From Psammoneis japonica (taxonomy: Eukaryota), in assembly GCA_008632985.1 (NCBI GenBank), contig QPGO01000071.1, forward strand, positions 359,516-403,306: DNA of 43,791 nucleotides, in the 5' to 3' direction. The notes beneath the pieces are model-generated. The model made no database searches. It worked only from the letters and a program-made list of their open reading frames with translations, and had not been told where the DNA came from. Shown here in pieces: positions 7,561 through 43,791 of the stretch. The translations under genes and the position numbers were made by a program. Position 1 is the first letter of the stretch; each line of letters opens with the position of its first letter.

Positions 7561-7937
7561 GGGCATGAGGGAGTATTTTCAATAAACCAAAACCACAGTC
7601 CCTTGTCGAACTTCCCATTTGACTCAGACGCATCGTCAGATCCACCTTGGCGATGATGCATGGACGACAGACATGACGCAAGACCGCCGTGGGAACGGGC
7701 AGGTGGACCGGATGGAGGTGGGGCAGCGCAGCGCGGTTTTTCGTCCCGTGCCTCTCTCCATCCGTATCGGTAATCTGCTTCGCTACCTGCCTCCAGTACA
7801 GCATCTGTCTCTTCATAGCATGGCATCCCACTACCGGCACATCCAAGAGAAGAGCGCAAAGAGAAAGACCTACGACGATATGTGTATGATGTTTATATGA
7901 CAACTCTAACGGAAGAATTGGTTGCGCCTGCAACAAG

Positions 7938-15234: not shown

Positions 15235-15540
15235 CTAACTAACTAACTAACTAACTATCTATCTACCACTGCTCTCTACTACCCTAGCTAGAGTAGAGAG
15301 AGGTCACAGTAGAGTAGAGCTAGCCACTCTCTCTAGCTAGAGCTAGCTCTACTGGCCACTCTCTCTGCTCTAGAGAGAGCAGAGAGTGGGGGCTTCTTGC
15401 CCTGCCTGTCCGCCCGGCCAGTCGGAACCGCAGAAGAGCTGTGCCGGCATGGCACGGCAGGCCTCTCTAGAGAGTAGAGCCAGTTGGTCACCAAATCTTT
15501 TACTACCCAACATGTGTTCAAGATGCTGTTCCTCTAGTTT
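15235..15540. repeat. (CTAA)5/(CTAT)2 microsatellite followed by a CTAG/AGAG/CTCT-rich low-complexity patch with an 11-bp perfect hairpin (15361-15386)
   Basis: Read directly: ctaactaactaactaactaactatctatcta; repeated CTAGAG, GTAGAG and CTCTAG; stem CTCTCTGCTCT-agag-AGAGCAGAGAG. Confidence 0.8.
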
Positions 15541-15646
15541 TCAATGTTCCAATGAGCTCGTTTCGAGAATGAACCATCAATGATCTTTTCCAGCCAATGC
15601 ATCTTCCTCCTTGCATCCACAGCATCCCTGAAGAAACAAGACAAGT

Positions 15647-16330
15647 CTAACCACGGTTGCGCCTGCGCTTCCAGATGTCAGCTGCAGCATGAGAAAGCTC
15701 AAACGATTCCACAAACAAAACAACGCTGTCAAAACGATGGCGTCCACCAAAAAACTTCCTCGCTCGGAAATTGCGTTTCGAACTCAAACAAGACATCGCG
15801 CTTGCTTGCACAGTGCGACAACACATGTGCACTGCCAGTGGCGTTTCCGGAATTGCTGCAAATCATGAGATCATGGGCATTGCAAGACACCACATCACCA
15901 ACCAATTCATGGCAATCGCGTTCATGCTGTTGCGGTGCTTCCCTGTGAGACCGCCAGAACAGGTCAACAACTGGGGGGGCTGTGGCTTTTCCTTCCAAGT
16001 CATGATGATCAAAGAGTCTTGCTGACCACCGCTGTTGCCATGCTTTTCAGATGCAATGGCTTCAACCGCCTTGACCACAAGAAATTGACGGCATTCATTT
16101 GCTGCCAGTTCGGCGAAAACCTCGAAAGAACCACCATGCTCTTGCATTGCTGGCGAATGCCCAGCAAGTGAGGGGCGCTCTTCTTGCCAAATGGCTGCTG
16201 GAGAACAAGATGAGTGTGCCAGCAAAGTGTGAGCAAAAGCTGAGTCACCGGCACAGCTGCTGGCACGCAGCAGCTTGTCAGATTGTTTCCAAGCTGACAA
16301 ACAAGGCTTCAGCCACTCCATGAACAATGG
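15647..16330 (-). pseudogene. Degenerate paralog of the GRDP-like (DUF1399-type) domain of the gene at 23555-25182
   Basis: Fragments ECRQFLVVKAVEAIASEKHG, WKEKPQP, VDLFWRSHREAPQQHERDCHELVGD, CASKRDVLFEFETQF and FGGRH align with EYRQFLLVKAVETIASCKYG, WKEKCQP, VDLFWHAHMQAPQQYAIDCHCLIGD, YASKRDAVFAFEKQF and FGGRRH. Several frameshifts. Aligned Tyr residues are Cys or His. Confidence 0.88.
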
Positions 16331-16400
16331 CAGATGTGCTGCCCGTTGTTGTGTGCTGCTGGCGCGCACTTTGTTGAAGCACCCAGCCACAATGCACTGA

Positions 16401-16511
16401 CGATGATGACCCAATGGGCTGGGTGATGCTGGGGTGTGAGGACAGGCTTCTTGAGCGATGATGACCCAATGGGCTGGGTGATGCTGGGGTGTGAGGACAG
16501 GCTTCTTGAGC
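16401..16511. repeat. Perfect 55-bp tandem duplication (2 copies)
   Basis: CGATGATGACCCAATGGGCTGGGTGATGCTGGGGTGTGAGGACAGGCTTCTTGAG at 16401-16455 and 16456-16510. Confidence 0.92.
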
Positions 16512-19321
16512 ACTCAGAGAGTTGCGTCTCCAAGATGAAAATGGCGTTTCACTGACTTTGCTTTCCATTTTTGAAGTTCACAATGTTGTTTTTATTTTCA
16601 ACAACATTTTGTGGAGTTTTGGCGAGTTTTAAGTTTTTGCACCAGCCCTCATTTGTTCCGTGCACAAGTCAAAAAATGATCGCGACTCCGTTTTGTGGTG
16701 TGGAAAACAACGATGAGCTCAACAACAACCGCTTTTAGCAGGTGCCGCAGAGAGGAAGGAATCCAATGTTTGAATGCTGCAGTTTGTTTTCACAGCAGAA
16801 TTGGGACCCACCAGGCAGGACATTGATGGACCAGCTGCACTCTCATGGTTCGGCCACTTGAGTTGTTCACCTCCTCATGGGAAGGGGCCGGAGAGGTGTC
16901 TTGCAGTCACGTGAAAGGTGCATTTCAACCAAGTCTAATGTGCCATTCAGAGCCTCTCAGAAGACATTGTTTTTTGGAATTTTGAAAAAATGGGAGCTTG
17001 TTGTTGGTTGGCGAAAGGAGAAGCAAATGGAGAGTGATTTTTCAAACCGGCTGGATGGGTCTGATTTTCATGGACCAAGTCCAATGCATGAAGATGGACA
17101 AGGGATTGATGGTTTTGAGCTTGTGTTGATGTCATGACGCAGAGAACACTGATCATGAAGTTGAGACCAAATTTGAGAAAAAGACCTTGTGACATGCCAC
17201 ACGACTGCATGAAAGCAAAAACATTTCCAAAATGGTGATTTTGTTGCCATTCACTCATGTTGTGCAGCAGAGCAAAAGAGATGTTTTGGAGGGGAGTCAA
17301 TCTCGTTTTCAAGACAGAAGGCATCAAAGGTCACTTCCTGAAAAAGTGTTCTTTTTGACAACAATGCATGTGGGGAGTTGTGAGAATTGCTCGTGAATGC
17401 AGTGAAGTGTGATGATGTGATGCCAAGTTCCCAATCGTAATTTTGAAAGGCTGTGCGGCGGCATTGTGATGACCCACTCACAGATGAACAAAAATTGCCT
17501 TTGTTTTGACATGGCTCATTGCAACTTGTCATTGTGACAACCAAAAGAGCATTTCATTCATTCTTTTCCTTTGACAAAAATGTTGCAAATCACAGGAAGA
17601 GTTTTCTGATTGGCCAAAACCATTTTTAACCAGAATGCTCAATGACAAAAAAATGCTCAAGCCCCATGTGATGATCACTTGAGCCCCTAAAACTGACACC
17701 ACCACCCACCTGTGCATGTGTTGTGATTGTGATCAACACAGTCCCTGCCACTGTGTTCACACTGGCAAAAGACAAAACAGCGTCAGGCAACAGGATGCCT
17801 GCAGCCAATGGCACAAACATTGAAACCCTCATCACTTTGTCAAAAGCACAGCTCAAAAATGTGGCACATGGAAAAAGAGCTTTGTGCTTGCACGCCATGA
17901 GCATGCTTTGCAGTTTGATCCCCCACCAGTTTGTTCTGTCATGCTTTTCAGTGCCTCACTGTGATTCGTGACATCTGTGTGTGGTTTTAAATTGCACAGA
18001 AGGTTCCACTGCTCTGCATTGCCTGAAACTCCTTTATGATGTGGCCCACTTCCATGCGCACACTCCATGCTTGTGTTCCTTCAGCACCTTGTTCAAATCA
18101 TCAGCTTCTCCAATGCATGCCAAACTTTGATGACAAGCACAAGGCAGAACACAGCAACAACAAAACTCTTTTGCAGGGGTGCAGCTGGTGCATCTGGGGA
18201 GCAGGTGATGTGCTTTTCACAGTGCTCCTGTTCACTTGTTTCAAGATCATGCACATGACCCAGTTTGAGTCATCTCCAGTGATTTTGCTCACACCAGTTT
18301 GCAGCATGGCCCCTGCTTTCACTTGCAAAGCCAGCCCCGCCAGCGTGGAAATGAGCTCTCTTGTTGTTTTTCTTCATGAGCAAAAACAGCTCAGCAGCAG
18401 CTTTGCTTTGAGCAAGAGGTCTGCTTCTGGGAACTGCTGTCTGGCTTTGTTGGGTTGGTTGTGACTGCAGCTTTTCAAAGAGCAAGCTGGTGTGTCTGGG
18501 TTGCCACCTGGTGCTGCCCCCCAAGCTGCAGCTGCTGTCCACACAGCACCACAGCACAAACTGGGTGAAGGAAAGTCCTTGAGAAACTGGTCATTTCATG
18601 TCAAAATTGCACCTGGACTTTGCTTCTCTCAACTGCTTGGATGTCAAAATTGAGCCCTTTGCAAAACAAACAACCAGAGCTTGTTCCAGTGAGTGGACCA
18701 AGCCAGGGTTTCTCTTCTGACCCAGCAAGGCTCACCTCTTTGCTTTTCATTTCACATTTGGCTTTCAGCACAAGAATCTTTGTGGCTTGACTTCACCTCT
18801 TTTGACACTGTGTGACTTGCGTGGCTCTCAAACTTGACCTTCCTTCCACAAAACTTGCAGTTCATGCCAACCATGGAGCTGTCTGCGAATGCATTTCTTG
18901 CCCCCCCCTGACTTCAAGCTGCTCAGGTTGCACCAAATTGAAGGAATGTTCCAGACCTCCAGGAGGCACAATGCTGCAGCTGGCACTCGCCTGTTTTGGG
19001 CCCTTCTTTCTGAGTTTGTCAACAGCCAACCAGAGTGCCAGCAACACTCAACATTTGCCACACCACAGCAACATGCCTGTCACCTTGCTCTGCTGCCCCC
19101 CTCCTTGCCCACGTCATTCCATCACCTTTTTCCATCAATCGTGTGCCCACCCACCACCTTTCCTCTTTCTGTGGCCGCCGAAGTCTGCGCGCAACTTGTC
19201 AATGCTTCAATCACGAGCTCCACTGTTTGTAAATCTATCACTTTCTTTTTGCGCGCACCATGCCGCTCCTGCCTCCTGCGCTGCCAGCCTGCCAGCTCCA
19301 CATTCTGTTTTCGACCCAACC

Positions 19322-20901
19322 ATGACAAACACCGCCGCTGCAACGACCCCGCCGCCGCCATCCACCACACCGGCTTCTCCCGACGGTCCACCATTGGAAA
19401 TTGGTGATGTCTGTATGGTCATATGGAGAGACGGTCAAGAAGAATTGCTCGCCAGCATTGTCGAACGCCGATCCTTACGAAAAAACAAAAAGGAACTCTC
19501 CGACGAAACAGCGCAAGAGGTGGAATACTATGTTCACTATGTGCATCACGATCGACGTCTCGATGATTGGATTACTCTTGATAAGTTTCGATTGGAAACG
19601 CTTCGCCGAAAATCAGAACAGCCTGCTCCACCGACCAAGTCGTCGGGTCCTGGCAAACGTGGCACGAGACGAAGCAACAGCAGCGATAGCATCGGATCGA
19701 TATCACGTAAGCAAGCCAAACTCAGTCCGGAATCAGAAGATGGCGAGACGAATGCGCTTTCTATTGACACGTCGGCGGACTTTTTCTATCACGGCGGCAA
19801 TTGGCACGGCAGCAGCATGACCAATGATCCGACTCTGCAACAATTGGAAAAGGAGCACGAGGAAATCACCCGAGTCAAGAATATTCCTCGCATCGTTATG
19901 GGTTCGTACGAAGTGGAAGCGTGGTACTTTTCACCCTATCCCGCCGAATTTGCCACGGGCAAACGCTTGTACGTTTGTGACTATTGTTTGAAGTACATGC
20001 GTCACTCCAAAACGTACAAGCACCACATTGCGACGTGCCCCTGCCGTTGTCCACCCGGTAAAGAAATTTACCGCGAAGACACCACGTCGGTGTATGAAGT
20101 CAATGGCAAGGATCACCCTGTCTATTGTCAAAACTTGTGTCTGCTGGCCAAACTATTTTTGGATCACAAGACACTCTATTACGATGTGGATCCGTTCTAT
20201 TTTTACATTGTGACTCAAACCAACGAGTTGGGTGCTCATATTGTGGGATACTTTTCCAAAGAGAAAGTGAGTCGTTGTATGGAGGTGATTTGTTGTTATC
20301 GACATGTCTCTAGTGAATACTTATACTCATCTTATGCCTTTCCGTGTCGTTCTCAATTCTGCTCAGGTCTCTGCTGAGGACTACAATTTGGCATGCATCT
20401 TGACCTTTCCCCAGTACCAGAAGCTTGGCTATGGCAAATTCATCATCAGTCTGTCGTATGAATTGTCCAAGCGCCAAAACAAGGCGGGAAGTCCCGAAAA
20501 ACCGCTGAGTGATTTGGGCAAAATTTCCTATCGCAGCTACTGGACCCACGTCTTGTTGCATTTGCTGCACAAGGAAAATCTCGAAACGATTTCCGTCAAG
20601 GAAATATCTCAGAAAACAGCCATTAAACCAGAAGACATTATTAGCACGCTGCAGTCTCTAAACATGATCCAGTGCTGGAAGGGACAGCATGTGATTTATG
20701 TCAAGCAAGATATTTTGCAAGACTACATGAAGCAAAAGTGAGTAACAACACGAGGTGTCTCTTACGCAATACCAATCATCGAAACTTGACTCACGCCATT
20801 CCGTTTTGTTTTCTAATCATTGCAGCAAACGTATTCGCTTGTGTAATCCAAAATATCTCAAGTGGGAGCCGAATGGCGGCAAAATCAAGAGTGATTCTTG
20901 A
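19322..20901 (+). CDS. MYST-family histone acetyltransferase (Tip60/Esa1/MOF-like) with Tudor-knot chromo-barrel; exons 19322-20266, 20367-20737, 20826-20901
   Basis: [16 protein letters not shown] (Tudor-knot); [18 protein letters not shown]2HC zinc finger, [58 protein letters not shown]. Two GTGAGT...CAG introns keep the phase. Confidence 0.95.
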
Positions 20902-23554: not shown

Positions 23555-25182
23555 ATGACGAAGCCGCGTTCGAAAAAGGCGAGAAAGAGCTCCAGGGATC
23601 AAGACGTTTCTGGACGTAGTGCGGCCATGGTGGTCCAACCACAAGCACTTACAAATCATCAGAGCAGCTATGCGCTAGTTCAGGATCAGAATCGCATGGA
23701 ATACTTGCTATACCAGATGGAACAACAACAGTTGCACCTTTTTGTCCTACAGCAACAGCAAAAGGACTCCGCATTCATGTACTCGCTGTCGAGTCGTCAC
23801 CACGCTGAATTTCTGCGAGCGCTGTCTCTTCAGCAGCAATACGGAGGAGGAGGAGACTATTTGTCAGCATTAGCTCGACACCAACGTGATGAATATGATA
23901 GTTTCATAACTCAGCAGCGTCACTTTCGTCAGCACCTACATGTGTCAGGATTTGCTCAACAGCAGCAGTTTGCTCAACGTATTGGTATCGGTACGTTGGG
24001 TTATGGTGGCCAAGCGTCGCAACAGCCGCAGGTAGCTACTACGACTGCTACGACTCTACCAACCACTGGCAATGCCAGTATGGATCCCTTAGAGATTCTG
24101 GGTGAAGACATTCATCGTCATATTCTCAGTTTTCTCATGTGTCTCAGGGAAGGCCGTGCTTCGCCCGCAGTTTCGGCAGTTGACTTGTACATCCGTGCTA
24201 ACCAAATAGCCTACAAGGCCACGCACCCCAATCTACCACACTGGAAAGTCCGAGAAGGTCTTGAGAGGATTTTCAAGGTCTCTCGTCAACGCAAAAGACC
24301 AAGTGGGATAAGCTTGCAGACCAAGACCAGAAACGCTACGCCAAGGAGAAAGCTTCCTTTACGACTTCACGTCAGCTTGCCGAGATTTGTCGAGGTCTTT
24401 CGCTCGTTTCCAAACCCTGGCGTCTCGTCACGGGAGATTATATGAATTCAAATGCTCCTTCAGATATTCTTTCTCCGAGTGACCTGTTCGTTCTCAAACA
24501 CAGGGTTCGTTTGATTCAACTCTCGTCCATCTCGACGAACTTTATCAAGCTCGTCAAGGAGAAGTGGGGTGAAGAGACCTTCGAAGATGATGACCTTGAA
24601 GATGTTGGATTCCCGACTTTGGAAGGCCGGCCGTTGCTGGATCTCGTCATTCAAGAATTCGGTGGAACCTACAAGGGCTTTGCCAAATTGGTGGCCTGGG
24701 AGTATCGTCAGTTTCTCTTGGTCAAGGCGGTCGAAACCATTGCGTCTTGCAAGTACGGCAAGAATCGCCAACAGCAAGGCTCGTCGACCGTCTTGGCATG
24801 GAAGGAAAAGTGTCAACCCACGCAGTTGGTGGACTTGTTCTGGCATGCTCATATGCAAGCCCCCCAGCAGTATGCAATCGATTGTCATTGCTTGATTGGT
24901 GACATGGTTTCTTCTTCGAATGCTGGTGATTTTGCGATTGACAGCATCATCGATCATGACGCTGGATACGTCAGTAGCAACAAGTACAAGGAATCGGACT
25001 ATGCAAGCAAGCGTGATGCTGTGTTTGCATTTGAAAAGCAATTTTCGGTCCTGAACGTGTTTGGGGGCCGTCGCCACTTTGGCCTCATAGACGCAAGTGT
25101 TTTGTGTGATGAGGAATTCAATGTCCGTCATATTGCAGCTGAAATTTTGTCGAACATGCAGGAATGCAACGACTGTGGATAG
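23555..25182 (+). CDS. Gln-rich N-terminus + F-box-like motif interrupted by an HMG box + GRDP-like (DUF1399-type) C-terminal domain; apparent -1 indel at about 24277
   Basis: F-box-like DPLEILGEDIHRHILSFL ... LSLVSKPWR. Restoring one G at 24277-24278 gives the HMG box SAVDLYIRANQIAYKATHPNL...IFKGLSSTQKTKWDKLADQDQKRYAKEK, in frame with ORF 24442-25182. GRDP-like EYRQFL..K and P..LVDLFWHAHM..P..Y..DC. Confidence 0.75.
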
Positions 25183-25948
25183 AAATGGTATGGTGAGTGG
25201 CGGTGTTTTAGGCATGGGGTTGATGGTGAATTGTCACGGGATATTGGTGTTGTAGTCTTTGGGGGGATAGGGCCCACATCTAGAAAAGAAGCAAACGCAT
25301 TGGTGGTTCATTCTCGAGAAAAGAACATTGGAATATTGATTGGGATGAACGAAACTAACGTCTTGGATGCATACAGTACCTTAGAGGAAATAGTGACAGG
25401 AGGGTCTGGTAACTACCTTACAATATAGATAGTGCAGATTTATCTAGTCAGCCTCTGAGAACTAGTAGAGTCAATGAGCAACTACGGCTGGTCCTTATAA
25501 CGATCTTCTTCGGTCTGGTGCCACAATGATTGGCGTACCTATCACTTTTAGAAGAAACATCGCCTCTTGTATTTTGGCTCCACTTCTGTCTTTCACCTCG
25601 ACAGAATTCGTGATCTGTGAGTGGCATCAAAATTCGTTACTCTACTGCAGGTTTCGAGCCTGTCCAAAGTAAAGAGTCAGGAACGGATTGAAAAGAGCTT
25701 TTTTCGGGAATCTGCACGCTCCGTGGAGCCCTTCGTCCCATCGCAAGCAGTGGAAAATATAGTCCAACATTATGAAAAATTGACAGTACTACGATACTAG
25801 TGTCTAGTAGAGATGATGACCCATCTTGTCCTTGCATACCGCCTCCACCAAGTACTTAGAACGCGCACGAAATCAAACGACTATCTCGCCCTGTGGTCGC
25901 ATGGGAGCGGCAACAACCCCGATATTATTCAACGTGAGCGCGCATCTT

Positions 25949-28816: not shown

Positions 28817-30883
28817 ATGTATACCGGAAATCGTGCGCTAGTGTTGGTGGCGCGCTTCTCATCCTTCTGGGAGTTGTGGTGCGCTTCAATGTCGACAGCA
28901 ACGTTAACGGGGTTTCGGGTTTACTTAGCCTTCGATCTACTGCCGATGGACCCGGAAAAAAGACACGCATGCCTGTGAATTCAAACTGCGTTTACAGCGT
29001 TTCAGCGTTTGATCGGACGGCCAGGCGGCAGTCGGAACCCCGTTCCAACAGCTGTCTCGAGTCCAACGCCGACCTGTTGACACACCTCGTGTCGCAATCC
29101 GGTGCTGCCGTCAACGACCCGAACGTCACTGCCGTCATCGCGATCAGCGTCGTTGATCGTCAAAAAATTCAGATGATTGAATCACTAGCACTCGTCGCTG
29201 ACGAGTTTCTTACGCCACGTATGGACTGGCGCATCATGGCGGAGCGATTCTTAGTAGTCAAGGAGAAGGCCTCTGTCTCGGATGAAACTAGAAACACCAC
29301 GGGCAGTGATGCTACGGAGGCAAAACCTATCGCTGAACAGTCAAGACTCTTGTTGGACCCGGCTGCGTATGCGTCGGCTGAAAGCGGTACATTCGCAGAC
29401 CCTTTCGTCTCTGCGATTCACATCCTGCGTGACAAGGCAAGTGGCGGGACGTTGGACGAATCGATTCATGTCGATCTGATCCTTGTTCGAGTATTGGAGG
29501 AGAAACTGGCAGCGTTTGCCGATGCCTTGCGGCGCTTCCAGTTCCCCACAGGCACTCCCATTGATGAAGGCGAGGATAGTGAGTGTGACGCGGGTTTGGC
29601 AATAAACAAGGGGCGGACCTGGGTCAAATACGGCGGCTACAAGGACTTTCTTGGAGCGTGGACCGTAACGAGTGCCGGTTCGCTTGCCCAATCTATCGAA
29701 AGGGGCTTTCCCTTTATCCGCGTCTCACCTGTTCAGTGGGCTCGAACGTACCATTTTGATACCTGCAGCGCCGAAACGGTTGCTGCGATCGATCCTGAGC
29801 TTGGCATTGTGAATGGCCTGGACTGCGGCTTTCTCCCCATTCATGGCGGGACCTGCCTACACGACCGAGTCGATCCCTCGCTCAAGTGCATGAGCGAGTT
29901 TAGGATGGGGAGCCTTATGCATGTCATCCTTCCGAAGAATGGCATCCCTGAAGGGGTTTGTCTGTCGAGCCGCAAAGAAGCCCCACCATACAGTGCAACT
30001 AACCTTTATGGTGACCCTGCTCAGCCATTCATCGATTGGTGCCCATCGTGTCAACCATTTGGCTATATAAGCAACCGGACGATCACTCCAAAACTCTTGT
30101 CGGATCCGTCAGCACCAATGGGATTTGGCGAGATGGAAGAGGTGGACATGGCGTCCATCAACACGCACATGCCCACCTGCACTATGGAGCTCAAAAGCCT
30201 CACGTGCGGGGACGATGGCAGACCCTGCTGTTTGGAATGAAGTGAGCATTTCGCAAGATGTCCTTGGGAGCCACAACGGAACTGCTGAAAAGATACCACG
30301 GGCATTTTACCCCAGTATCTTCAACCTGTATCTTGTCCGTTTCAATCGGTCTAGTAGGAATCGCATCGCCCGCCTTTATCATCCACGCTTGTCAGCCATG
30401 ATTGCTCGCGGGGTTGGATGGGAGTCAGCCTTGGCAACCGGACGCTGCGCGACTCTGCACATTCGTCGAGGCGACAATATGGACCGGTGCAAGAGTGGAG
30501 AGAAATTCTTTTGTAGCATGAACCTAACGCTTGCGGACTACATGGAGAAGGCCGCACCAATGCTCGACCAGCTCGGTGATGCCAAGCACGTCTTTGTCAT
30601 GACGGACGATCCGGCCGTTGCCGATAAGAAGCGACAAGCACCCTTTCTGAACGATGGATATTTCATTGAGGTCATTTCTGGATATAATCAGTATAGCGAG
30701 GAGACCTACAATGACTGGGACCCGTTCATTGAGAGTCTCCACGGAGCCCAGTTTTGCCGAGCCTTTGTTGGGCACCACATTTCGACGGTTTCCGCGCTTG
30801 TCTTTAGAAGCATTTGCGTGAGATGGGGCGAGTGCCCCTTGACTGACGACTTTAGTGGCAGACGTGGCGTTGCCTGGCAGTGA
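28817..30883 (+). CDS. Fucosyltransferase-like (GT23/FUT8-NodZ-like motifs) type II membrane protein, copy 1; disrupted by a 2-nt TA insertion after ATG and an extra T at about 30231 (possible young pseudogene or assembly error)
   Basis: TM segment ALLILLGVVV. C-terminal CATLHIRRGD, HVFVMTDD and FVGHHISTVS match fucosyltransferase motifs I-III. Colinear with the paralog at 36631-38830, which has ATGTACCGG (here ATGTATACCGG) and TGCTGTTGG (here TGCTGTTTGG). Confidence 0.75.
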
Positions 30884-33646
30884 CAGAAATATGATCCCAC
30901 TCCTTCTGCACATCATGGAGATTTGCTTTGGTTTTCGTCAACAGTTTCCCTGCAATTGTTACGGTCACGGCACTGCCTCTGTGGTGTGACTTAGGGAGAG
31001 TGGAGGGCCAGTCACTCTCACAATTGCAAACTTGTGTGTTGCTAGCTAAAGAGGCCAACTCATTTAACAACGACGCAGTTTTGAATGTTGAGCATGACAC
31101 CATAGTTGCGTCGCTCACGTGCCGTCATTTATACGGACACGTGTCGATCCTCGTTTAGCTGACGGCAAACACGCGCCTTTTTCTCAGGCTGTCTGTTTAG
31201 GCCACAGTCCAATCTAAAAGGGATGATGCAGTGAGACAATGTGCCATCTGAGAGTTGACGGGGTTGCGTCAAAAGAGCAAAGCAGCATGGTGTGTCTGGG
31301 GTGAGGGGTCACCACTTGGCGGCTCCAAATGTGATGTTCGCGCCACTCCCATTGGCACCGCTGATCCACTCACCAAATTGTGGCCTGATGGTTTTCATCA
31401 TTGTCTTTGGATCAAGAATGCCACACCATCTGAATGCTGCCACTTGACTGCGGCAGCAATTGGACAAGTTGGTGGCTTCCGTGCATTGCCTGCACGCTTG
31501 GTCTTGTTTTGTTTGGGCATGAGCTTTTTTGGCTGACAAAAGCATGCCAAGTTTTGTTCAAATTCTTGCACTTGCATTTTTCGTGGGCACCTCTTCCTGA
31601 CACCACCAAGAATTTGCCATGGTTTGATCCCAAGACATCTCTCATGTCAAGATTTTCAAACACACGCAGCTCAACGAGGGTGCATGAATGACCAGCTTGT
31701 TGCACCCAAATGATGAACATTTGCAGTGCATGCAAAGTGACGAGCCAGTCCTGCCAAAGCTGAAGAAACAGCCGTTGACAAGTTTTGCTTTTTAGAGCCA
31801 ATCTTTGCAGCAACCATTTTGTTTTTGTGCTGTGAGGGGCACTCTTTTTTGGAGCCTTTGTCCCTGGCGCCAAACACAGCAGTTCTGCATTTTGATTTTT
31901 CTCTTCATTCAAGGCTGTTTGCAAAACAAGATCATGGGTGCACTGCACCCATGAGTGGCAGAGACATTCCCACTGCTCCAGCAGCTGCAACACAGGAGCT
32001 CAGTCAATTTCATGAGGTTGGTGCTTCCAACACCAAGGTTGCATTCATGCTCAAGTGCAAACTGGATTCTTGTCATGTGAGCACAGGCAGAGCAAGGCAC
32101 TTTTGCACCACCCCGCCCCCTGTCTCTGAAGAGGAGCATGTCCCTGATCTCACCACAGAGCACAATTGTGCTGTTGCCACCACTCATTCCCTCAGCATCA
32201 ATTTTTGGAGCACAGTGCATCTGATGAACAACCCCAAGCATCGGTCACAACAGCTGCATTTTCAGCTCTTTTGCAATTTTTTCCTGTGCTGTTGTTTGCA
32301 AGAAACAAGCTTTGAGTGCTCCTGCTTTGCACAGCTGCAAGCAGCCACCCACAAGGCCTCATCAGCATGGTGCTGGCAAATTCAAACAGCCGGGTCAGCT
32401 CTGCACTCTTGGTGTGTTTTTGTTGCACCAGTTGCCAGACCCCAAAGTGCGCCATTTTGTGCTGTGCCAGTGTGTCAGCACATTGTTTGCACTCAGCACA
32501 CCCATCACATCCTGCTTGTTTCTTTTTTGCAGCTTTTTGATTTGTTGCAAGGTGTGTGGTGGTGACACTCAAAAAGATGCTTGCACTCACTCTCTAAATC
32601 TGAAACCCACAAACCTTGTTTGTGGTTTGTGTTGCAATTGATGGCACACAGTGCAAGGCACAAACTTTGGCATCAACCTTGGTGCCAATCAGCAGTTTTC
32701 CCATTGGCCAGTGCATGTGTTCTTCCAAGGCCACCCAGAATCTGATGTCCTGTGGGAGAGCAGCATGTCAACAGTGTGTGGTCAGATGTGCAAAATTGCT
32801 GTTTCAGAACATGGCTCACAACAATGCCCTGTGCAACCTGCTGCAATCAAGATGTGTTTGAGCTGCTTGGCAAAGTGCTTCAAATGCTGCGATTCAAAGA
32901 CTGCCTCCTTTTAAGCACCTTGGTTTGTGTGCTGAATTTGATGGCAATCACATCTGCCAAGAGTGCAGCAGCTCAGCTGTGGTTGCATGCCACAGCTGTG
33001 TTGATCATGCACTTGCTTTGCACAGATGGAAACTCCTGCCACCAATGAATCCCTGCTCAAGATTACAAAGCTGCTTTGCTGCCCATTGACTTGGCATCTG
33101 CAAAGGACTCTGAAGTTGGTCCTGAACAGGGCTTGCCAGAACATGATGAGTTTGGCCAGGTCCTGTGGGCTCACCTGCTGCAACTCACTTGGTGAGATGT
33201 TGAGTGCTTGCTGTGTCATCATCTGCTGTTGCCTTGACATTGGCAATGCTGTCATGACCTTGTCTGGGTTTGTCTCTGCTCCTGCCCCAGTCCATTGCTC
33301 CACTTCAACTGAAAGGTGTTGCCCCAAGTGTCTTTCTTGTCTCAAGCATTGGAGTCAGCCAGCTGCTAGAAGCCAGCTTGCAATCTGAACTTGCCCTCAC
33401 ATCTGTTTCTTGGACACATTGTTGCTGATCTAATGTGCCTGCTCTTCCCATGTTGCCATTTGCTTGCGTGAACTGCTCACTCTCTTGGATGCAGCTCTGG
33501 GCCAGTCTTGGCAGAGATGGCTCACTCACAGCTGATGTGCAACACCCCATGCTCAACGGAATGCGCATGGTGAGTTTTGTGCACACACTCAAAATGTTGC
33601 TCATTTGTTTCATGCATCTTTGGGCACTTTTCATGCAAGGGAGATA
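29910..33646 (+). repeat. Segmental duplication, copy A (3' half of FucT-like copy 1 plus about 2.8 kb downstream); copy B is 39612-43791
   Basis: Continuous colinear similarity, for example GCCTGGCAGTGACAGAAAT, GATCCACTCACCAAATTGTGGCCTGATG and AAAATGTTGCTCATTTGTTTCATGCAT in both copies. The match runs to the window end. Confidence 0.92.
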
Positions 33647-36230
33647 ACATCACAAGCATCTGGCATGGTGTCTGGTGGCAGCCACAATTGGCACATCTGA
33701 GCCACCCTTTTGGGGCTGGCATGTGCAGCTGTTGCTCACAAAGCAAGCAAGCAGCAAAAGCAACTGCAGTGAAGTCAATGCATCAAGAAGAACACACTGC
33801 CTTGCTGCCTGTTTGCCAAGAAGGGCACACATTGAGTGTGTCATTGTCTCCTCCAACCTCATGGGAGTGTGGGGTTGGTTGTCACACAATGGTCACAAGC
33901 TTTCCTCTCTCACTCTCCTTTCTAGAAACTCAGCAGCAAGGAAAGATGCAAAAGCCAACCAAGGCAGCCCATTGCAAATCACATGGTTGACTTTGGCATG
34001 ACACCATGCTTGTCTTGGCACACAGAATGCTGACAGATGTCATCAACACTGCAGAAGACCTCATTGAGACCCCAACACAGGCAAGTCCTGGAAGCACAAC
34101 AAACAAACTAGAAATCAATTTTACTGCTGCCTTGCTGCTGCCCACACCAACACCAACCACAGTGGACCCATGTTCCCCAGTGCCCACAAAGGGCGGCAGG
34201 GACAATTTTGAACACTGTCAAACATTGTCAGAAAGACAATGTCATTGACACATTGTCCAAAGGCAATGCCACCAATGCATCATCAGAAAGAGGCTGTTTG
34301 TTTTAAGTCACAACAGCAACCAACTGGATGCTTCTTACATGGCAACCCCAGTTGCTGTGCCTCAAAGAATGGACAAGCCCAGCCACACCGCTTTGGAGAC
34401 ACCAAAATGAACACTGCAGAAAACCAAACACGTGTCCATCTCTGAAGACAACATGCTTGAAGAGATGTGAGAGAAATTCCTGGGATGAAAAACACCCAAG
34501 AAAGTCCAACATGGACCCCAACAAAGAAAAGGAAATGACAATTGGAATCATCAGATGGAATTTCCGTCATGCGCAGAATTGCACAGAAATTGTGCACTGA
34601 AGCTGCAACATCAAAGTGCAAGAGAAGCAACAGCGAGACTTGGAAATGCCAGCCACTTGGAAGACTTGTGATGACCCACTTTGGAGCACCATAGAACATC
34701 CATCTTGAACTGCAGCACATTGGAAAGAAAACTCAAAGGAAGTGCGTTGGTGAGAAGAACAAGAGAATGAACCTGACACAGTCGTTGACTCGAAATTCTG
34801 GCCAAACGCGTAGAATTGCACATGAAATTTGCACTGAAACAACTGACTTGGCAATTGCTGAATTGCGCAGAATTTAACGTAGAAAACATGCTGACTTCAG
34901 GAAAGAAAATGCAAAGAGACACAACACCATGGCGGTGCCACTCCCCTGAACGTAGACACAACAGAGTGTCCCCTCCGATGCCATTTGGTTTCTCTGTCAT
35001 TGGCGCAACTGCCTGACATCCCAAAGTGCCCGAGGAGGTTGGCATGCCACCACACTCTCACACAGGACAATCCTGCTGGCACTTGCACAGAATTGTGTCC
35101 TGGAAGCACAACAAATTGCCAACTGTCCCTCCCTTGGACAGCTGTTTGTCTTGGGTTGGGGGTGCTCAAGGCAGACCTCCAGAGCATCCACAAAACAGCC
35201 CCAAGTTTGCAGTTTCCAGAAAAAAAGGCAAGTGCCTTTTGTGCCTCAGTGCAAAACGCTCCTCTTTGACACCACACTGAGCCAGATTGTCTCTGCCACA
35301 GGTTGTGCTGCTCTGGTTTTGACACAAAGTCTGGGACAGGCTGCTGAGAAATTTGCGTTCCTTGTCCATCTGGGCAGGAGCCAACATCACAGCTTTTGTG
35401 AAAAATGATCTATGGTGTGCACCCCTTTTCCTGGCCACAACCTTTGTCATTGCGCGCACATCATGCCAAACAAGAGCAGAGCTTTCACAGTTTGAGCCCT
35501 GCAGCATGGGCTTTGCAAGCGCCCTTGCATGCGCAAAAAGAGCAGCCGTGTGCAGCACTTGACCAGCTTGTTTCTGGGTTTGCACCCTGCATCATTTCTT
35601 GGGATGCTGGCCTTTGCTGGCACAAAAATGAGGCAGGTGGCAACTGCCACAGAGGCAAGGTGAAAGAGGTTGGTTTTGAACATCATTCTTGGTGGTTGGA
35701 GCAAGCCTTGCCTCGCAGTGCAAAGAGAAGATGGGGGAGCTGTGCACGTGGCTCAGGAACACATCTTCTGGGTTTTTCTTTTGTGAGCATTTTTTGTTGT
35801 TTGGTGGAGAACTGCCCAGCGCATGTGTGTGAGCAAACCATGTGCTCCTGCACTGCCCAGTGGCACAGAGTGGATGGCAGAAAGCACTGCAGAGAGCAAA
35901 GCTCCTCTTGGGGCGGGCTGCAGTCGATGGAGCAGCAAGCCGAGCATGTGGTTTCACAGAGCAGCTGATGAGTTGGTCAGTGAGGGACTTTCTTGGCAAT
36001 GGTGAGCTGATGCTTTAAAAGCCTCATCGTGCTGGGGTGGCAGCATGGTGGGTGAGGCCAAAACGGGCAGAGATGTGGTGTGGTGCTGGTCTTGGTGGCG
36101 GCCATGGCACCAGCGGGTGGGAAGAGGCCGGGTGGGGAAAGCTGGGCATGGGCACAGGCAGAGTGCACAGATGGGTGTTGGAAGGAGGACTCTGATGTTC
36201 AGGGCAGAGCAGGCGGGGCGGGATGGGTGT
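31200..36230. other. TpA/CpG-depleted hypermutated domain 4, containing coding-like decayed sequence of unknown family on the minus strand (about 31300-33400)
   Basis: The 248-aa ORF 31819-32565 has no Tyr. Mutation grades in from about 30900. The right edge (35900-36230) keeps CpG but lacks TpA. Confidence 0.88.
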
Positions 36231-36630
36231 TCTTGGTTAGATCCGAAGAGGCGGTGAGCGAAGCAGGGGTGCGTTTCCTTCTCGTTTTTTACGTTCACGA
36301 TCAACCAAAAAGATTTATGATTTATCATGCCGGCATATATCCATAAAGTAGAAAGCACGACTAATGTTTAACGAAGAATTCCTGGACAGTGTTCTGAAGT
36401 AAGTACATTGGACAGTAAAATGACTTTCCGAGTGTGATGTTTTGTCCTCGCTGGTGTCGCCGGGCGCCGGTATTGAGTAAATCTATGAGAGCGGCGATCA
36501 CCGCTCGTGCTTGCCTCAGGTTTAAGGGCCTGCCTTTACCAGAACAAAGCGATTCCACCGTACTTCTAAGGATCACACGGAGCGTCAGAAGACGTTCGCC
36601 AGAATTGAAACAGCCAAGGAATCAAAAAGT

Positions 36631-38830
36631 ATGTACCGGTATGCCGCGAAACGTTCCTTGGCGGTGTGTTGCGCACTTCTCATCATCCTGGGAGTTGTGG
36701 TGCGCTTCAATGTCGACAGCGACGTTAACGAGGTTCGAGATGGACTGAGCAACCGGTCAACCGATAGGCCCACTAACCTTCAGCACCAGCAAGAAAGGGA
36801 GAAGAAGGAAGAAAAGGTCGATAGCTTTGAGTTGAATGAGGATGTGACTGTGAACTCAAACTGCGTTTACAGCGTTTCCGCTTTCGACCGGATGGGCCAA
36901 CTGCAGTCAGAACCACTTTCCAACAGTTGCCTCGAGTCAAACACTGACTTGCTGGCTCACCTCACTTCCCTTTCTAGCGCTGCCGTGGACAATTCACAGG
37001 CTACCGCCGTCATCGCGATCACCATCGTTGATCGCGAGAAAATTCAGATGATCGAATCACTGGGGCTGGTTGCGGACGAGTTTCTTACCCCCCGTATGGA
37101 CTGGCGCATAATGGCGGAGCGATTTGTAGTCAAGGAGGAGTCTTCTGGTGTTCACTCTGCTGCATCTGGGAACAAAACGAGCAGCGGTAACATTAGGAAG
37201 GCAAAGCCAGCTGAACTTTCTCAGTCACGACTCTTGTTGGACCCGTCAGCCTATGCACCGGGCGTAAGCGGAACATTCGCAGACCCTTTCATTGCAGCGA
37301 TCCGCACGCTGCGTGATAACGCGAGTGGTAGAGCGCTGTTAGGGAGCGGGAACAAGAACAGAAACGTTGCAAATGCCATGGACGGGAATTCAAACTTTAT
37401 TGACGCTTCGATTCATGTCGATTTGATTCTTGTTCGAGTCTTGGAGGAAAAACTAGCAGCATTCGCCGATGCCTTAAGGCGCTTTCAGTTCCCCAAAGGC
37501 ACTTCCATCGATGAAGGCGAGGATAGTGAGTGTGCCGCCGGTTTGGAAATAAACAAGGGGCGGACCTGGGTCAAGTACGGCGGCCAGCAGGACTTTCTTG
37601 GAGCGTGGACTGTAACCAGTGCCAGATCCCTTGCCCAATCCATCGCAAGGGGCTTTCCCTTTATCCGCGTCTCACCTGTTCAGTGGGCACGAACGTACCA
37701 TTTTGATACCTGCAGCGCCGAAACGGTTGCTGCGATTGATCCTGAGCTTGGCATTGTGAATGGCTTAGACTGCGGCTTCCTTCCCATTTACGGGCGGGAC
37801 CTGCCTACACGACCGAGTCGATCCCTCGCTCAAGTGCATGAGCGAATTTAAGATGGGGAGCCTAATGCATGTCGTCCTTCCGAAGAACGGCATCCCCAAA
37901 AAGGTCTGCCGATTGAGCCATGAGCAAGCCCCGCCATACAATGCAACTAACCTTTACGGTGGCCCTGCCCAGCCGTTCATCGATTGGTGCCCATCGTGTC
38001 AGCCATTTGGCTATGAAAGCAACCGGACGATCACGCCAAAGCTCTTGTCAAATCCGTCAGCACCAATGGGCTTTGGTGAGTTGAACAGAAGGGACATGAA
38101 GACGATAAACAAGAGGACGCCCACCTGCACGATGGAGCTCAAAGGCCTAAAGTGCGGAGACGATGGCAGACCCTGCTGTTGGGACGAAGTGAGTATTTCG
38201 CAAGACGTCCTTGGGAGCCACAACGGAACGGCTGAAAAGATGTCACGGGAGCTCTTCAACAGCGTCCTCAACAGCTATCTTGTCCGATTTAATCGGTCTA
38301 GCAGGGATCGCATCGCCCGCCTTTATTATCCACGTTTGTCGGCCATGATCGCCCGCGGGGTCGGATGGGAGAATGCCCTTGCAACAGGGCAGTGCGCTAC
38401 GTTGCACATTCGCCGCGGGGACAACATGGACCGATGCAAGAAAGGAGAGAAGCTGTTTTGTAGCATGGACCTCACGCTCGCAGACTACATGGAGAAGGCC
38501 GCCCCGATGCTTGCCCAGCTCGGTGGCGCCAAGCACGTCTTTGTCATGACCGACGATCCAGAGGTTGCCAATAAGAAGAAGCAGGTGCCCTGGCTACAAA
38601 AGGGTTATTTTATCGAAGTGATTTCTGGATATAACCAGTATAGCGAGGAGACCTATAGTGACTGGGACCCATTCATTGAGAGTCTCCACGGCGCTCAGTT
38701 CTGTCGAGCATTTGTTGGGCACCACATTTCGACTGTGTCCGCGCTTGTCTTTAGAAGTATCTGCACGAGATGGGGCGAGTGCCCCATTGCTGATGACTTC
38801 AGTGGTGAACGTGGCCTTGTCTGGCAATAA
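36631..38830 (+). CDS. Fucosyltransferase-like (GT23/FUT8-NodZ-like motifs) type II membrane protein, copy 2; apparent +1 G indel at about 37791
   Basis: MYRYAAKRSLAVCCALLIILGVVV (TM); CATLHIRRGD, HVFVMTDD, FVGHHISTVS. TACGGGCGGG here versus CATGGCGGG in copy 1 locates the frameshift between ORFs 36631-37851 and 37838-38830. Confidence 0.8.
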
Positions 38831-39611
38831 CAGATGTGTAACTTCCTAGTTTTAATGTAAATTATTGCGGTCATGGGAGTGCAGACAATGTAGAACGGGT
38901 TTTTGGATGGAAACCATTGGTGTCCCACAAAGGCATGACGCCAGAGAGTGGCACCTTGCATTGATTGGCTAAGACAAAAAGGTGACACTGTGACACCTTT
39001 TGCCCATGTGCTGGATGCTGGCACCTCCTGTTTGGCCTCAGGACAACAAGCCAGGTTTTTGTCCCAAGTCAGCCACAAGCAAGCCATTGAAAAAAGTCAA
39101 CGATGCATGGAAAGATGGCTTGCAGAGTGTCACTTGATTTCCTGGAGGGGCACAGACTCTCTTTGTGTCTCTTGCCTGAGGGCACACACACCACCAAACA
39201 GCCCTGTGACAGGTGCCCCCACAAAATGCACTTCTTTGCCATTGATTTGCAAGGCTGCAGCCCCCATGTTTTGTGACAGATTGCCTTGATCTTGGCCCTC
39301 CCACCCCGTTGACATGCTGAGGGAGTGTGAGCAACTGTCATGACATCACATTGCTCTCAGAAAATTCAACCTCTGGATCTGTCATGCCTGCCATTTTCAC
39401 AAACTCCCAAGAACTTGCTCTTGCGCCCTCATTGCAGCTTGCAAGAAAAATTGCAACAAAGACATCTTGCAAGAAAAAGCAGCAACAACAAGACATCTCA
39501 AAGAACCTCAACTGTCAAGCTCTCCCTTGGTTTCTCACTTTCCATGGACCCAGTGCACAAATTATGGTGTGAAGCAGGTGCAAGTGCAACATCATAATCA
39601 CACATCTCAAA

Positions 39612-40592
39612 AGCCCCTTGCACATGTCATCCTTCCAAAAAATTGCATCCCAGAAGTGGGGGTTGTCAGTCAAGCAGCAAATGAGCCCCACCATGCAGCA
39701 CAGCTGACCTTTGTGGTGGCCCTGCTGAGCCATTCATTGTTTGGTGCCCATCATGCTGTCAACCATTTGGGGCCATGTGAGCAACTGGATGGTCACTCCA
39801 AAACTCTTGCTGGATCTGTCAGCACCAATGGGATTTGGCAAGATGAAAGAGGTGGACATGACATCCATCAACACAAACATGTCCACCTGTGCTGTGGAGC
39901 TCAAAGGCCTCATGTGTGGGGAAGATGGTGGACCCTGCTGTTGGAATGAAGTGAGCATTTCACAAGATGTCCATGGGAGCCACAACAGAACAGGTGAAAG
40001 GATGTCACAGGTGTTTTGCCCCAGTGTCTTCAACCTGTGTCTTGTCCATTTCAATCAGTCTGGTGGGAATTGCAATGCCCCCCTTTGTCACCCATGCTTG
40101 TTGGCCACAATTGCTTGAGGGATGGGACAGCAGCCTGCCTTGGCAACAATGTGTGACTCTGCACATTCATCAAGGCAACAATGTGAGCAAGTGCAAGGAT
40201 GGAGAGAAGCTCTTTTGTGGCATGAACCTGATGCTGGTGGACTGCATGGAGTGGGCCGCCCCCCAATGCTTGGCCAGCTTGGTGATGCCAAGCACGTCTT
40301 TGTCATGATGGATGACCTGGCTGTTGCCAACAAGAAGCAACATGCACCCTTTCTGAAAGATGGGCATTTTGTTCAATTCATTTCTGGATGCAATCAGCAC
40401 AGCAAGGAGACCTGCAGTGACCAGGACCTGTTCATTGAGAGTCCACACAGAGCTCAGTTTTGCCAAACCTTTGTTGGGCACCACATTTCGATGGTTTCTG
40501 CGCTTGTCTGCTTTAGAAGCATCTGCATGAGATGGGGCAAGTGCCCATTGACTGATGACTTGAGTGGCAGATGTTGTGTTGCCTGGCAGTGA
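39612..40592 (+). pseudogene. Hypermutated 5'-truncated pseudogene of the FucT-like gene (copy 3, closest to copy 1)
   Basis: Translations VTPKLLLDLSAPMGFGKMKEVDMTSINT, CVTLHIHQGNN and LGDAKHVFVMMDD...FVGHHISMVSAL...GRCCVAWQ align with copy 1. Frameshifts, with systematic Tyr->Cys/His and Arg->His/Cys/Gln changes. Confidence 0.95.
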
Positions 40593-43500
40593 CAGAAATG
40601 TGAGCCCACTGCTTCTGCACATCATGGAGATTTGCTTTGGTTTTGTCAACCATTTCCCTGCAATTGCAGCAGTCACAGCAGCACTGCCTCAGTGGCAAGA
40701 TGATTCTTTGCAAGAATGGAAGCCAGACACTCTCACAATTGCAAACTTGTGTGTTGCCAGCCAAAGAGGCCAACTCATTTGACAATGGCGCAGCTTTGCA
40801 TGTTGAGCATGACACCACAGTTGTGTCACTCACGTGACATCATTTGCATGGACACATGTTGATTTTCATTTGGCTGACAGCAAACACACACCTTTTTCTT
40901 GGATGAGAGGGGTCTGTGTGGGCCACAGTCCAATCTAAAAAGGGGTGATGCAGTGAAACAATGTGCCATCTGAGAGTTGATGGGTTGCATCAAAAAAGCA
41001 GCATGGTGCATCTGGGGTGGGGGGTCACCACTTGGTGGCTCCAAATGTGTTGTTTGTGCCACTCCCATTGGCACCACTGATCCACTCACCAAATTGTGGC
41101 CTGATGATTTTCATCATTGTCTTTGGATCAAGAATGCCACACCATCTGAATGCTGCCCCTTGACTGTGGCAATTGGACAAGTTGGTGGTTTCCATGCATT
41201 GCGTGCACGCTTGGTCTTGTTTTGTTTGGGCGTGAGCTTTTTTGGCAGGCAAAAGCATGCCAAGCCTTGTTCAAATTCTTGCACAGGCATTTTTCTTGGG
41301 CACCTCTGCCTGACACAACCAAGAATTTGCCATGCTTTGTTGATCCCCCAAGACATCTCTCATGTCAAGATTTTCAAACACACACAGCTCAACAAGGGCA
41401 CATGAATGACCAGCTTGTTGCACCCAAATGATGAACATTTGCAGTGCATGCAAAGTGGCAAACCAGTCCCGCCAAAGCTGAAGAAACAGCCATTGACAAG
41501 TTTTGCTTTAAAGTCAATCCTTTTGCAGCAATGATTTTGTCTTTGTGCTGTGAAAGGTGCTCTTTTTTGGAGCCTTTGTCCCTGGTGCCAAACACAGCAG
41601 TTCTGCAATTTGACTTTTCTCTTCATTCAAGGCTGCTTGTAAAACAAGATCATGAGTGCACCCATTGCATCTGTGAGTGGCAGAGACATTTCTGCTGCTC
41701 CAGAAGCTGCAAAAGAGGAACTCAGTTGAATCCATGAGGTTGGTGCTGCTTCTGGCACCAAGGTTGCATTCATGCCCAAATGCCAACTGGGTTCTTGTTG
41801 TGTGAACTTTGGCAGAGCAAGGCAATTTTGCACCACCCCCTTTCTCTGAAGAGGAGCATGTCCCTGAACTTGCCACAGAGCACACTTGTGCTGTTGCCAC
41901 CAATCCTTTCCTTGGTGTTGATTTTTGGAGTGCATCACATCTGACAAATGGCCTCAAGCATCAAACATGACAATGACACACTTTCATCATGCTTGCAGTT
42001 TCTTCCCATGCCATTGTTCCTGAGCACAAGCTTTGAGTGCCCCACCTGCCATGGCTGCAAGAAGCTGTCCACAAGGCCTCAACAGCATGGCACTGGCAAG
42101 TTCAAACAGCTCAATCAGTGCTGCACCATTGGTTTGTTTGTTGCACCAGTTCCAAGCCACCAAGGAGGGGCACTTCATTTTCCATCTCCATTTTGGCATC
42201 ACAACATCCAACTGAGCACATTGTTTGCATTCAGCACATCTGTCATCTTGTGCTTGTTTCTCTTTTTGCAGCACTTTGATTTGTTGCAAGGCATGCAGTG
42301 GTGACACTCAAAAAGATGCTTTGGCACAGACAAGAGAAAACAGGAGATGGTGGTCTGTGCCCCCCCCCGGTGCAAGTGGGGGGTCTGGTCAGTGTTGCTG
42401 TTTTGGAGGCATTCTGTGTGCTGCAGAAGCAGCACTCATGGCTGCAAGCACCTGAGGAGCCACAGCAATCTTGCTCTTTTGTTTCATCATGTTGATGAGT
42501 CAAGAGCAAGTTTTTGTTTGCAGTCTGTGCCACCCACCCTTTGTGGATCTCTGGCAAGAGCTCCAATTCCGGGTTCCTAGAATTGCAAGCTCTGGCTCAA
42601 GGTCTGGTGCTTGTGACTTGTGCCACAGCCAACCAGAGTGCTCAGTTGGAGCATCAGCTGCCAGAAAAGAGAAGAGTCAGAGAATGACAGAGGGCAGTCA
42701 ACCATGAAACCCACAAAACCTGCAATTGACAAAGCACATCATGTGCTGCATGGCTCAAGGCACAAATTTTGGCATTGAACTTCAAGTTGGCGCCAATTGG
42801 CAGTTTTGCCAATGGAAGGTGCTCTCCAAGGCTGCCCAAAATCTGATGTCCTGTGGGAGCCGTGTCTCAACAGTGTTTGTCAGATGCAAAGTTGCTGTTT
42901 CAGAAAATGGCTTGCAACAAGGCAAATGTGTTTGCTCTTCTTTGATTTTCAAGAGCAAGAAGGAAGCTCTGGTTCTTCAACAGGCAAATGATTTTTTTGG
43001 TGGTTTAAACCTGCTGCAATTGAGATGTTTTTGAAGTGCTTGGGGAAGTGCAACAAAGACTTGCCTCTTTCAAGCACGTTTGCTTGTGTGCTGAATTTGA
43101 CAGTGGCCAAACATCTGTGCAAAGAATGCAGCCACACAATTGCAATTGCATGTCACAGTTTTGTCAATCATGTGCTTCTTGATTTGCACAGATGGGAGCC
43201 TCCTGCCACTGCTGACTCCCCACTCAAGATTGCAAAGCTGCGCTGCTGCCCATTGATTTGGCATCTTCAAAGCACTCTGAAGTTGGCCCTGAACAGGGCT
43301 TGCCAGAGCATGACAACTTGGCCAAGTTCTGTGGGTTCTCACCTGCTGCAACTCAGTGAGTTGTTGAGTGTGTGATCCATCTGTTGCCTTGACACTGGCC
43401 ATGCTGTCATGACTCCATCCAAGTTTGCCTCTGCTCCTGCCCCACTCCATTGCTCCACTTTGAAAGGTGTTGCCAAGCCATTTCTTGTCTCAAGCATGAT

Positions 43501-43791
43501 TGGAAATCAGCCAGCTGCAAGAAACCAATGTGCAATCTGAACTTGCACTCACATCTTTTTCTTAGATGGCTTGTCACTGATCTGAATGTGTGCTTCCTGC
43601 TCTTTCTGCCAACATTTGGTTGCAGCTGCTGCTGACTCTCCTGGATGCAGCCCTGGGCCAGTCTGGGAGGAGATGGCTCAATCACAGCTGATGTGTGCAA
43701 TGCCCCATGCTCAAAAGAATGAGTGTGAGTTTTGTGCACACATTCAAAATGTTGCTCATTTGTTTCATGCATTTTCTCATGCAAGAGATGA
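39612..43791 (+). repeat. Segmental duplication, copy B (of 29910-33646), with an extra segment of about 385 bp at about 42321-42704
   Basis: Colinear with copy A. Copy A joins AAAAAGATGCT to TGAAACCCACAAA with only about 20 bp between them. Confidence 0.9.

Follow-up and report, generated by a model that had tools for sequence, protein, structure and literature searches.

The closest described system is that of the rhizarian alga Bigelowiella natans, for which the available text of a preprint (Mettrop et al. 2026, bioRxiv 10.64898/2026.01.13.699255) reports that, in mutation-accumulation lines, two silent viral inserts collected 231 mutations, of which 230 were A to G or T to C changes, all of them at TpA. 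The hypermutation ran at ~ 1000 times the genome rate and in some lines only, the giant-virus and virophage inserts still contain 3.3% TpA, and 124 clusters in the genome combine low TpA with high CpA+TpG (10.64898/2026.01.13.699255). An ADAT2-like adenine deaminase is proposed there as a candidate, dual A and C deaminase activity is cited for the ADAT2 of amphioxus and trypanosomes, and neither CpG nor diatoms are mentioned in the accessible text of the preprint (10.64898/2026.01.13.699255). A full-text literature search, with most subscription journals outside its reach, returned no paper on the joint erasure of TA and CG, or on TpA hypermutation in diatoms.

Fungal RIP is triggered by duplication, mutates both copies of a repeat, and involves a RID-type DNA methyltransferase that acts before meiosis. 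Two further systems are marked by A to G changes in a preferred context, i.e. the A:T mutagenesis of Pol-eta in somatic hypermutation, which is directed at WA motifs, and the hyper-editing by ADAR, with its preference for a 5' U and a 3' G. The 5' U preference of ADAR is also stated in the accessible text of the B. natans preprint (10.64898/2026.01.13.699255). In RIP, CpA is changed into TpA, so that TpA rises, according to the part of the source that is available (PMC2621366). Diatom transposons carry CG methylation, and many diatoms possess DNMT4 enzymes related to fungal RID, as far as the accessible part of that article goes (Hoguin et al. 2023, PMC9998398); DNMT4 may offer a lead, though solely for the CG half of the effect described below.

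The DNA analysed here (the window, i.e. the whole stretch of 43,791 nucleotides) comes from a diatom-like stramenopile, as opposed to the rhizarian lineage of B. natans. An earlier note had described a RIP-like erasure of TpA as well as CpG for the region 39612-40592; the effect is real, and it is more extensive than stated there. Composition in the window is bimodal: most of the DNA has a CpG observed/expected ratio (o/e) of ~ 1.0 and a TpA o/e of ~ 0.55, and five blocks have a TpA o/e of 0.01–0.07 and a CpG o/e of 0.07–0.21, with TG/CA at 1.75–2.0. These blocks are sharp-edged and non-genic, take up ~ 1/3 of the window and comprise every long non-genic stretch within it, while genes and their short flanks keep normal composition (TA 0.55, CG 1.0). 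The domains were called with a two-state HMM, run separately for TA and for CG with emission rates chosen from the two modes, and on TA alone their extent already goes well beyond the region first flagged.

Domain A (TA-poor 5768-7764, CG-poor 5991-7606, with 9 TA) is flanked by two genes that converge on it with their 3' ends; at 7131-7272 it contains an inverted repeat, the 67-nt arms of which are 84% complementary and separated by 8 nt. Domain B (TA-poor 9730-11180, CG-poor 9803-10906) contains a single TA. Domain C is TA-poor over 15536-19413 and CG-poor over 16747-19111 only, and its right edge is the onset of the conserved coding part of a MYST histone acetyltransferase gene. The remaining two domains flank the copies of a tandemly repeated gene (c1, c2 and c3). 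Domain D (TA-poor 31216-36237, CG-poor 31360-35913) starts ~ 330 nt past the stop of c1 and ends ~ 400 nt before the start of c2, its left part being a paralogue of 40645-43552. Domain E (TA-poor 38971-43790, CG-poor 38940-43790) starts ~ 140 nt past the stop of c2, contains both c3 and the copy of domain D, and reaches the end of the window with 9 TA and 19 CG in 4.8 kb. In general, domain edges lie 120–520 nt beyond stop codons and ~ 400–640 nt before start codons.

The sum of the pyrimidine-purine steps (YpR) is 0.2404 in the mutated DNA (14,459 nt) versus 0.2396 in the normal DNA (26,300 nt). From normal to mutated DNA, CG goes from 0.057 to 0.008, TA from 0.038 to 0.003 and TG+CA from 0.145 to 0.230, i.e. 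a drop of 0.084 for CG+TA and a gain of 0.085 for TG+CA. As the YpR total is the same in both, CG and TA have been converted to TG/CA, rather than avoided. The thresholds of the B. natans footprint (TpA ≤ 0.43 and CpA+TpG ≥ 1.52 per 1-kb bin) are passed by 14 of the 43 1-kb bins of the window versus 0 of 553 control bins. The latter were taken from 80 environmental (metagenome) eukaryotic loci around MYST homologues, none of which comes from a close relative, and which serve as a control and not as a test of spread among diatoms; no comparable TA/CG-poor block was found in these 80 loci.

How the mutated state arose can be followed in the tandem gene, of which c1 (28847-30887, + strand) is a parent-like copy of normal composition, c2 (36668-38834, + strand) is likewise normal in composition and serves as outgroup and as control for genic DNA, and c3 (39623-40600, + strand) is a dead duplicate of the 3' half of the gene, 5'-truncated and with stops in all three frames. 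Downstream of c3, 40645-43552 is a copy of the block 3' of c1. The gene belongs to no Pfam family and remains of unassigned family; in a collection of 5.8 billion proteins only 5 relatives of the c2 protein were found, all unnamed, and none was found in viral contigs. The reading frame of c1 is broken by one base near 30225 (30215-30240), where it has an extra T (TTT versus TT) relative to c2 and c3. Two ORFs, separated near 37840 (37838-37851), make up c2; as two public runs (X1 and X2), at full depth, lack one base at 37792, the assembly may have acquired this break through an indel error. Within the 5' part of c2 (36728-37006), 112–121 nt are absent from X1 and X2 contigs at three nearby places, most likely because the paralogues in this gene family vary in length. 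The word depth of X1 over c2 (150–370, versus ~ 55 in domain E) suggests that further copies of the c1/c2 gene exist elsewhere in the genome.

With c1 as a stand-in for the ancestor, alignment of its part 29920-30887 with c3 (39623-40600) gives 961 aligned letters at 83.8% identity, with 18 gap columns. Of the 27 TA of c1, 26 are altered in c3 (19 to TG, 6 to CA and 1 to GA), as are 55 of the 59 CG (27 to TG, 22 to CA and 6 to other dinucleotides), versus 61–88% unchanged for the remaining 14 dinucleotides; 82 of the 156 differences between c1 and c3 fall within a CG or TA of c1. The hand counts of the earlier note, made on the segment c1 30061-30359 versus 39771-40068, proved exact, all 10 TA reading TG (9) or CA (1) and 14 of 15 CG reading TG (6) or CA (8), with one AG, and the three examples that it quoted are seen in the alignment. 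c2 polarises only 17 TA and 36 CG sites, yet at these sites (where c1 equals c2) 16 of 17 TA and 32 of 36 CG were altered on the branch to c3, so that the polarised spectrum proposed as a check agrees with the note. Transitions per base reach 0.70 for the A and 0.22 for the T of TpA, and 0.47 for the C and 0.39 for the G of CpG, versus 0.04–0.09 elsewhere, and the loss per base in c3 amounts to 21 times (CG) and 25 times (TA) the background transition rate. The outcome is directional, as had been claimed for TA: 25 of the 26 altered TA sites and 49 of the 55 altered CG sites became TG or CA (P = 3e-4 and P = 9e-5, respectively, versus the local transversion share).

The two normal copies are in fact more diverged from each other (82% identity over 2037 letters) than c1 is from c3, and retention between them is 61–68% for CG and 58–61% for TA, compared to 59–76% for other dinucleotides. 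Since c1 and c2 show no excess loss of CG or TA, these steps are not hypermutable in genic DNA, which, together with the five sharp-edged blocks, bears out the earlier note in confining the effect to domains. On the former sense strand of c3, TA became TG 19 times versus CA 6 times (P = 0.015), and CG was unbiased (27 versus 22). c3 lies ~ 800 nt 3' of c2 on the same strand, and therefore read-through transcription from c2 could expose one strand.

The context of the changes is narrow for both steps. Counted on both strands between c1 and c3, A changed to G in 25 of 54 cases after T, versus 8 of 111 after A, 9 of 151 after C and 12 of 132 after G (a rate of 0.46 versus 0.06–0.09), so that the context specificity asserted from the short segment extends to the full alignment. 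C changed to T in 49 of 115 cases before G, versus rates of 0.04–0.06 in the other contexts of C (9 of 149 at CpA), and TCH is not elevated. TAY was altered more often than TAR (18 of 31 versus 7 of 23), a borderline difference (P = 0.057), and TAG is one of the contexts hit least often (4 of 13). The 43 TA left in the blocks are mostly YTAR, with TTAA 3.9 times and CTAG 2.2 times over-represented (chi-square P = 1e-5) and with ATAT and GTAC absent. For CpG the order in c3 is TCG (0.52) > ACG (0.48) > CCG > GCG (0.30), and among the 115 CG left in the blocks GCGC is 3.4 times over-represented and TCGA is rare. Along c3, TG and CA outcomes are clustered (24 runs versus 35.8 ± 4.0 expected, P = 0.0025), which stems from same-type neighbours at most 10 nt apart; concordance of neighbouring CG and TA sites in c3 is not significant (15 the same versus 12.6 expected, P = 0.21).

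The TA-poor blocks extend 70–1200 nt past the CG-poor cores nested in them. The longest such extension, 15536-16746 (1.2 kb), has 4 TA versus 76.8 expected, compared to 46 CG versus 74.5 expected. Within it lies a second decayed duplicate (15765-16090, + strand), 68% identical to 24706-25047 on the opposite strand, a source-like copy (- strand) of normal composition within the ORF 24460-25215. Relative to this copy all 7 TA of the duplicate are gone (4 to TG, 2 to CA and 1 to TT), versus 7 of 19 CG kept. Because the loss of TA reaches beyond that of CG, two processes are likely, and the proposal of a second mutator beside 5mC deamination, made in the earlier note, is on this comparison of sequences likely to be correct. 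The same TA-poor, CG-retaining zone holds a perfect 55-nt tandem duplication (16401-16511; 2.0 copies, 100% match), which looks like a very recent event.

Compared to the described systems, the window fits the TpA hypermutation of the B. natans type, judging from sequence, in its signature and its confinement to domains, and differs from it in saturation, CpG erasure, targets and lineage. As in the available account of B. natans, TpA changes only to TpG/CpA, on both strands and within circumscribed parts of a nuclear genome that is normal elsewhere, and the long-term outcome is clusters with little TpA and much CpA+TpG; moreover, the two organisms are both marine algae of the SAR group. Thus, the statement in the earlier note that it knew of no previous description no longer holds, given this preprint (10.64898/2026.01.13.699255). 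In the part of it that is accessible, however, new mutations were measured in viral inserts and no CpG component is reported, whereas the window shows a footprint only, but a saturated one (TA o/e 0.01–0.07), with a nested erasure of CpG, and affects host gene fragments and every long non-genic stretch. Since host gene fragments are targeted, no viral remnant was found and a CpG component is present, it may be a different system from that of B. natans, with a convergent signature.

The comparison to RIP holds in part, since both are transition hypermutations that disable duplicated or non-functional DNA, with a dinucleotide footprint as the trace. In contrast to RIP, TpA is destroyed in the window and C to T changes are confined to CpG, and repeats as long and similar as c1 and c2 (2 kb, 82% identical) are untouched, while unique DNA is affected. 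A repeat-induced trigger, as implied by the earlier note's 'RIP-like', is contradicted by c1 and c2 being unmutated and by domains A, B and most of C having no repeat in the window; domain edges track gene boundaries, not repeat boundaries. The CG half of the footprint resembles the decay of methylated CpG in silenced repeats of vertebrates and plants, in that CG goes to TG/CA strand-symmetrically, in non-genic DNA and more slowly in GC-rich context (GCGC survives), but such decay predicts no loss of TA, which here exceeds the CG-poor zone, so that only the CG half is explained. With Pol-eta and ADAR the window shares A to G changes with a preference for a 5' T (U). Pol-eta mutagenesis at WA, one of the candidates put forward in the earlier note, can be rejected, AA being no hotspot (8/111 versus 25/54 for TA). 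ADAR does not fit either, TAG being a poor target (4/13, and over-represented among survivors) against the 3' G preference, and RNA editing of the ADAR type would in addition require reverse transcription back into place.

The genes of the window encode a class-3 lipase, RsfS, a rhodanese/methyltransferase, an HA-domain protein and the MYST histone acetyltransferase, of which the best named relatives (~ 50% identity) are all from diatoms (Attheya, Nitzschia, Cylindrotheca, Cyclotella, Seminavis and Thalassiosira), which is the basis for terming the source diatom-like. Neither an Rfam match nor a tRNA gene was found in this DNA. Within the domains, none of the 138 stop-to-stop ORFs has a Pfam match, and no remains of viral or transposon proteins were seen; the targets identified are two fragments of host-like genes (c3 and 15765-16090). 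Heavy decay could mask a foreign origin of the domains other than these two fragments. ORFs in the domains are up to 274 aa long, because TAA and TAG are absent, and are not longer than in dinucleotide shuffles (P = 0.08–0.50). The ORF of the MYST gene (468 aa) begins inside domain C (18971-19413), and conservation with 13 relatives starts only at residue ~ 140–146; its first ~ 140 codons are probably a false upstream extension, enabled by the absent TAA/TAG stops.

The explanation that seems probable is that all long non-genic stretches of the window have been rewritten in place by two overlapping, context-specific transition processes, with decayed intergenic DNA and promoter-less gene fragments among the targets. 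The former would turn CpG into TpG/CpA by deamination of methylated cytosine in silenced DNA, methylation being presumed here. The latter would turn TpA into TpG/CpA, by an A:T to G:C transition at the TA step only that favours TAY over TAR, and its likeliest cause would be an enzyme acting on DNA at the adenine of TpA, possibly a deaminase of the ADAT2/TadA kind, with inosine as the product read as G. An adenine deaminase is the favoured candidate, the strand-symmetric footprint fitting A-directed and T-directed chemistry alike. Both processes spare genes plus a few hundred flanking bases and run at no less than 20 times the background transition rate; they would presumably be linked to silent chromatin, and may act beyond the 44-kb window as well. 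The result is DNA that has lost both self-complementary pyrimidine-purine steps and has twice the usual TG/CA.

Both processes appear to be still running. TG/CA doublets make up 35 of the 87 double differences between two mutated paralogous blocks, which is expected if CG and TA decayed separately in each copy, or if new CG and TA are quickly resolved either way. Of 11 differences listed between X1 and the window in domain E, 5 are CG versus TG/CA and 3 are TG versus CA.

Could the missing CG and TA be a product of assembly or base calling on modified DNA, the true sequence still having both? Differences of one base between the window and X1, at 37093, 37792, 40981, 40992 and 42876 among those listed, are typical of long-read assemblies, and no library type is recorded for X1. 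The sequence of the window may indeed contain indel errors, but the TG/CA states are confirmed by X1, contigs of which, at a word depth of 52–62, cover domain E with 0–3 other letters per 375–1115-nt piece. As X1 reproduces domain E in this way, a consensus artefact, which the earlier note had named as what would undo its claim, is unlikely, although the check is not fully independent, X1 and the assembly possibly stemming from one organism or sample. Ordinary substitutions and indels are also present in c3 (see the gap columns above), the TG/CA doublets are not expected from a systematic miscall, and a miscall at symmetric sites should at times give TA from CG, of which there is none in the alignment of c1 and c3. 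All in all, an artefact is highly improbable. An equally slight chance is given to selection against TA and CG words in non-genic DNA (as cryptic promoters, nuclease sites or transposon targets). Short words are depleted by selection in phages, but any change removes a word and here nearly all outcomes are transitions, the YpR total is conserved, and a dead pseudogene is affected at every site, which selection per site cannot drive.

Alternatively, one strand-directed DNA deaminase with dual activity, on the A of TpA and the C of CpG in silent DNA, could have produced both without any methylation-driven decay of CG. The depletions are nested with nearly equal edges, saturation is about equal for the two steps, both prefer a 5' T or A (with the GCGC-rich, TCGA-poor survivors among CG) and TG/CA outcomes are clustered in c3. 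Yet the zone 15536-16746 and the second duplicate have lost TA and kept most CG, neighbouring CG and TA sites are not significantly concordant, only pairs at most 10 nt apart being so, and the spectrum in the accessible text on B. natans has no C to T component (10.64898/2026.01.13.699255), so that a single enzyme seems unlikely. The chemistry at TpA could also be directed at thymine instead of adenine, T being oxidised to 5-hydroxymethyl- or 5-formyluracil and changing to C. Both modified bases pair wrongly with G, which gives T to C changes, and dinoflagellates carry 5hmU at TpA. The signature, being strand-symmetric, is equally compatible with A to G at (T)A and with T to C at T(A), and in each of the two erased palindromic steps a purine follows a 5-methylpyrimidine (T or 5mC). 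On the other side, the literature search, as far as its sources were accessible, returned no paper that connects diatom DNA with 5hmU, and the excess of A to G over T to C on the sense strand of c3 (see above) is neutral unless the exposed strand is known. Attack on thymine is considered quite unlikely.

Returning to the two overlapping processes, a more far-reaching version is conceivable and is held here as rather doubtful, namely that diatoms in general, or this lineage at the least, run a standing, chromatin-guided editing of their DNA, by which all untranscribed nuclear DNA, be it host or foreign, is turned into an alphabet free of TA and CG. The editor would be a natural DNA adenine deaminase preferring T-A-Y, possibly also deaminating C at CpG, and B. 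natans would represent an early stage, or a weak version, of a defence common to SAR algae.

Whichever enzymes are involved, there are practical consequences for the annotation of such genomes. TA-free DNA is without TAA and TAG stops and therefore yields long false ORFs, real genes can be extended upstream by it (as has apparently happened at the MYST gene), and old transposons and pseudogenes escape similarity searches after such rewriting. The footprint itself is a marker for silent DNA in diatom genomes that is read from the sequence only. It would also indicate a natural mutator directed at the adenine (or thymine) of DNA, which is of interest for base editing; to our knowledge, no natural enzyme has been established as such a mutator. 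If the process is active in diatoms, TpA hypermutation, for which a single preprint on a single rhizarian alga is so far the source, would become a more widespread trait, shared by a major group of phytoplankton, and would be targeted at any non-genic DNA, not at viral inserts alone.
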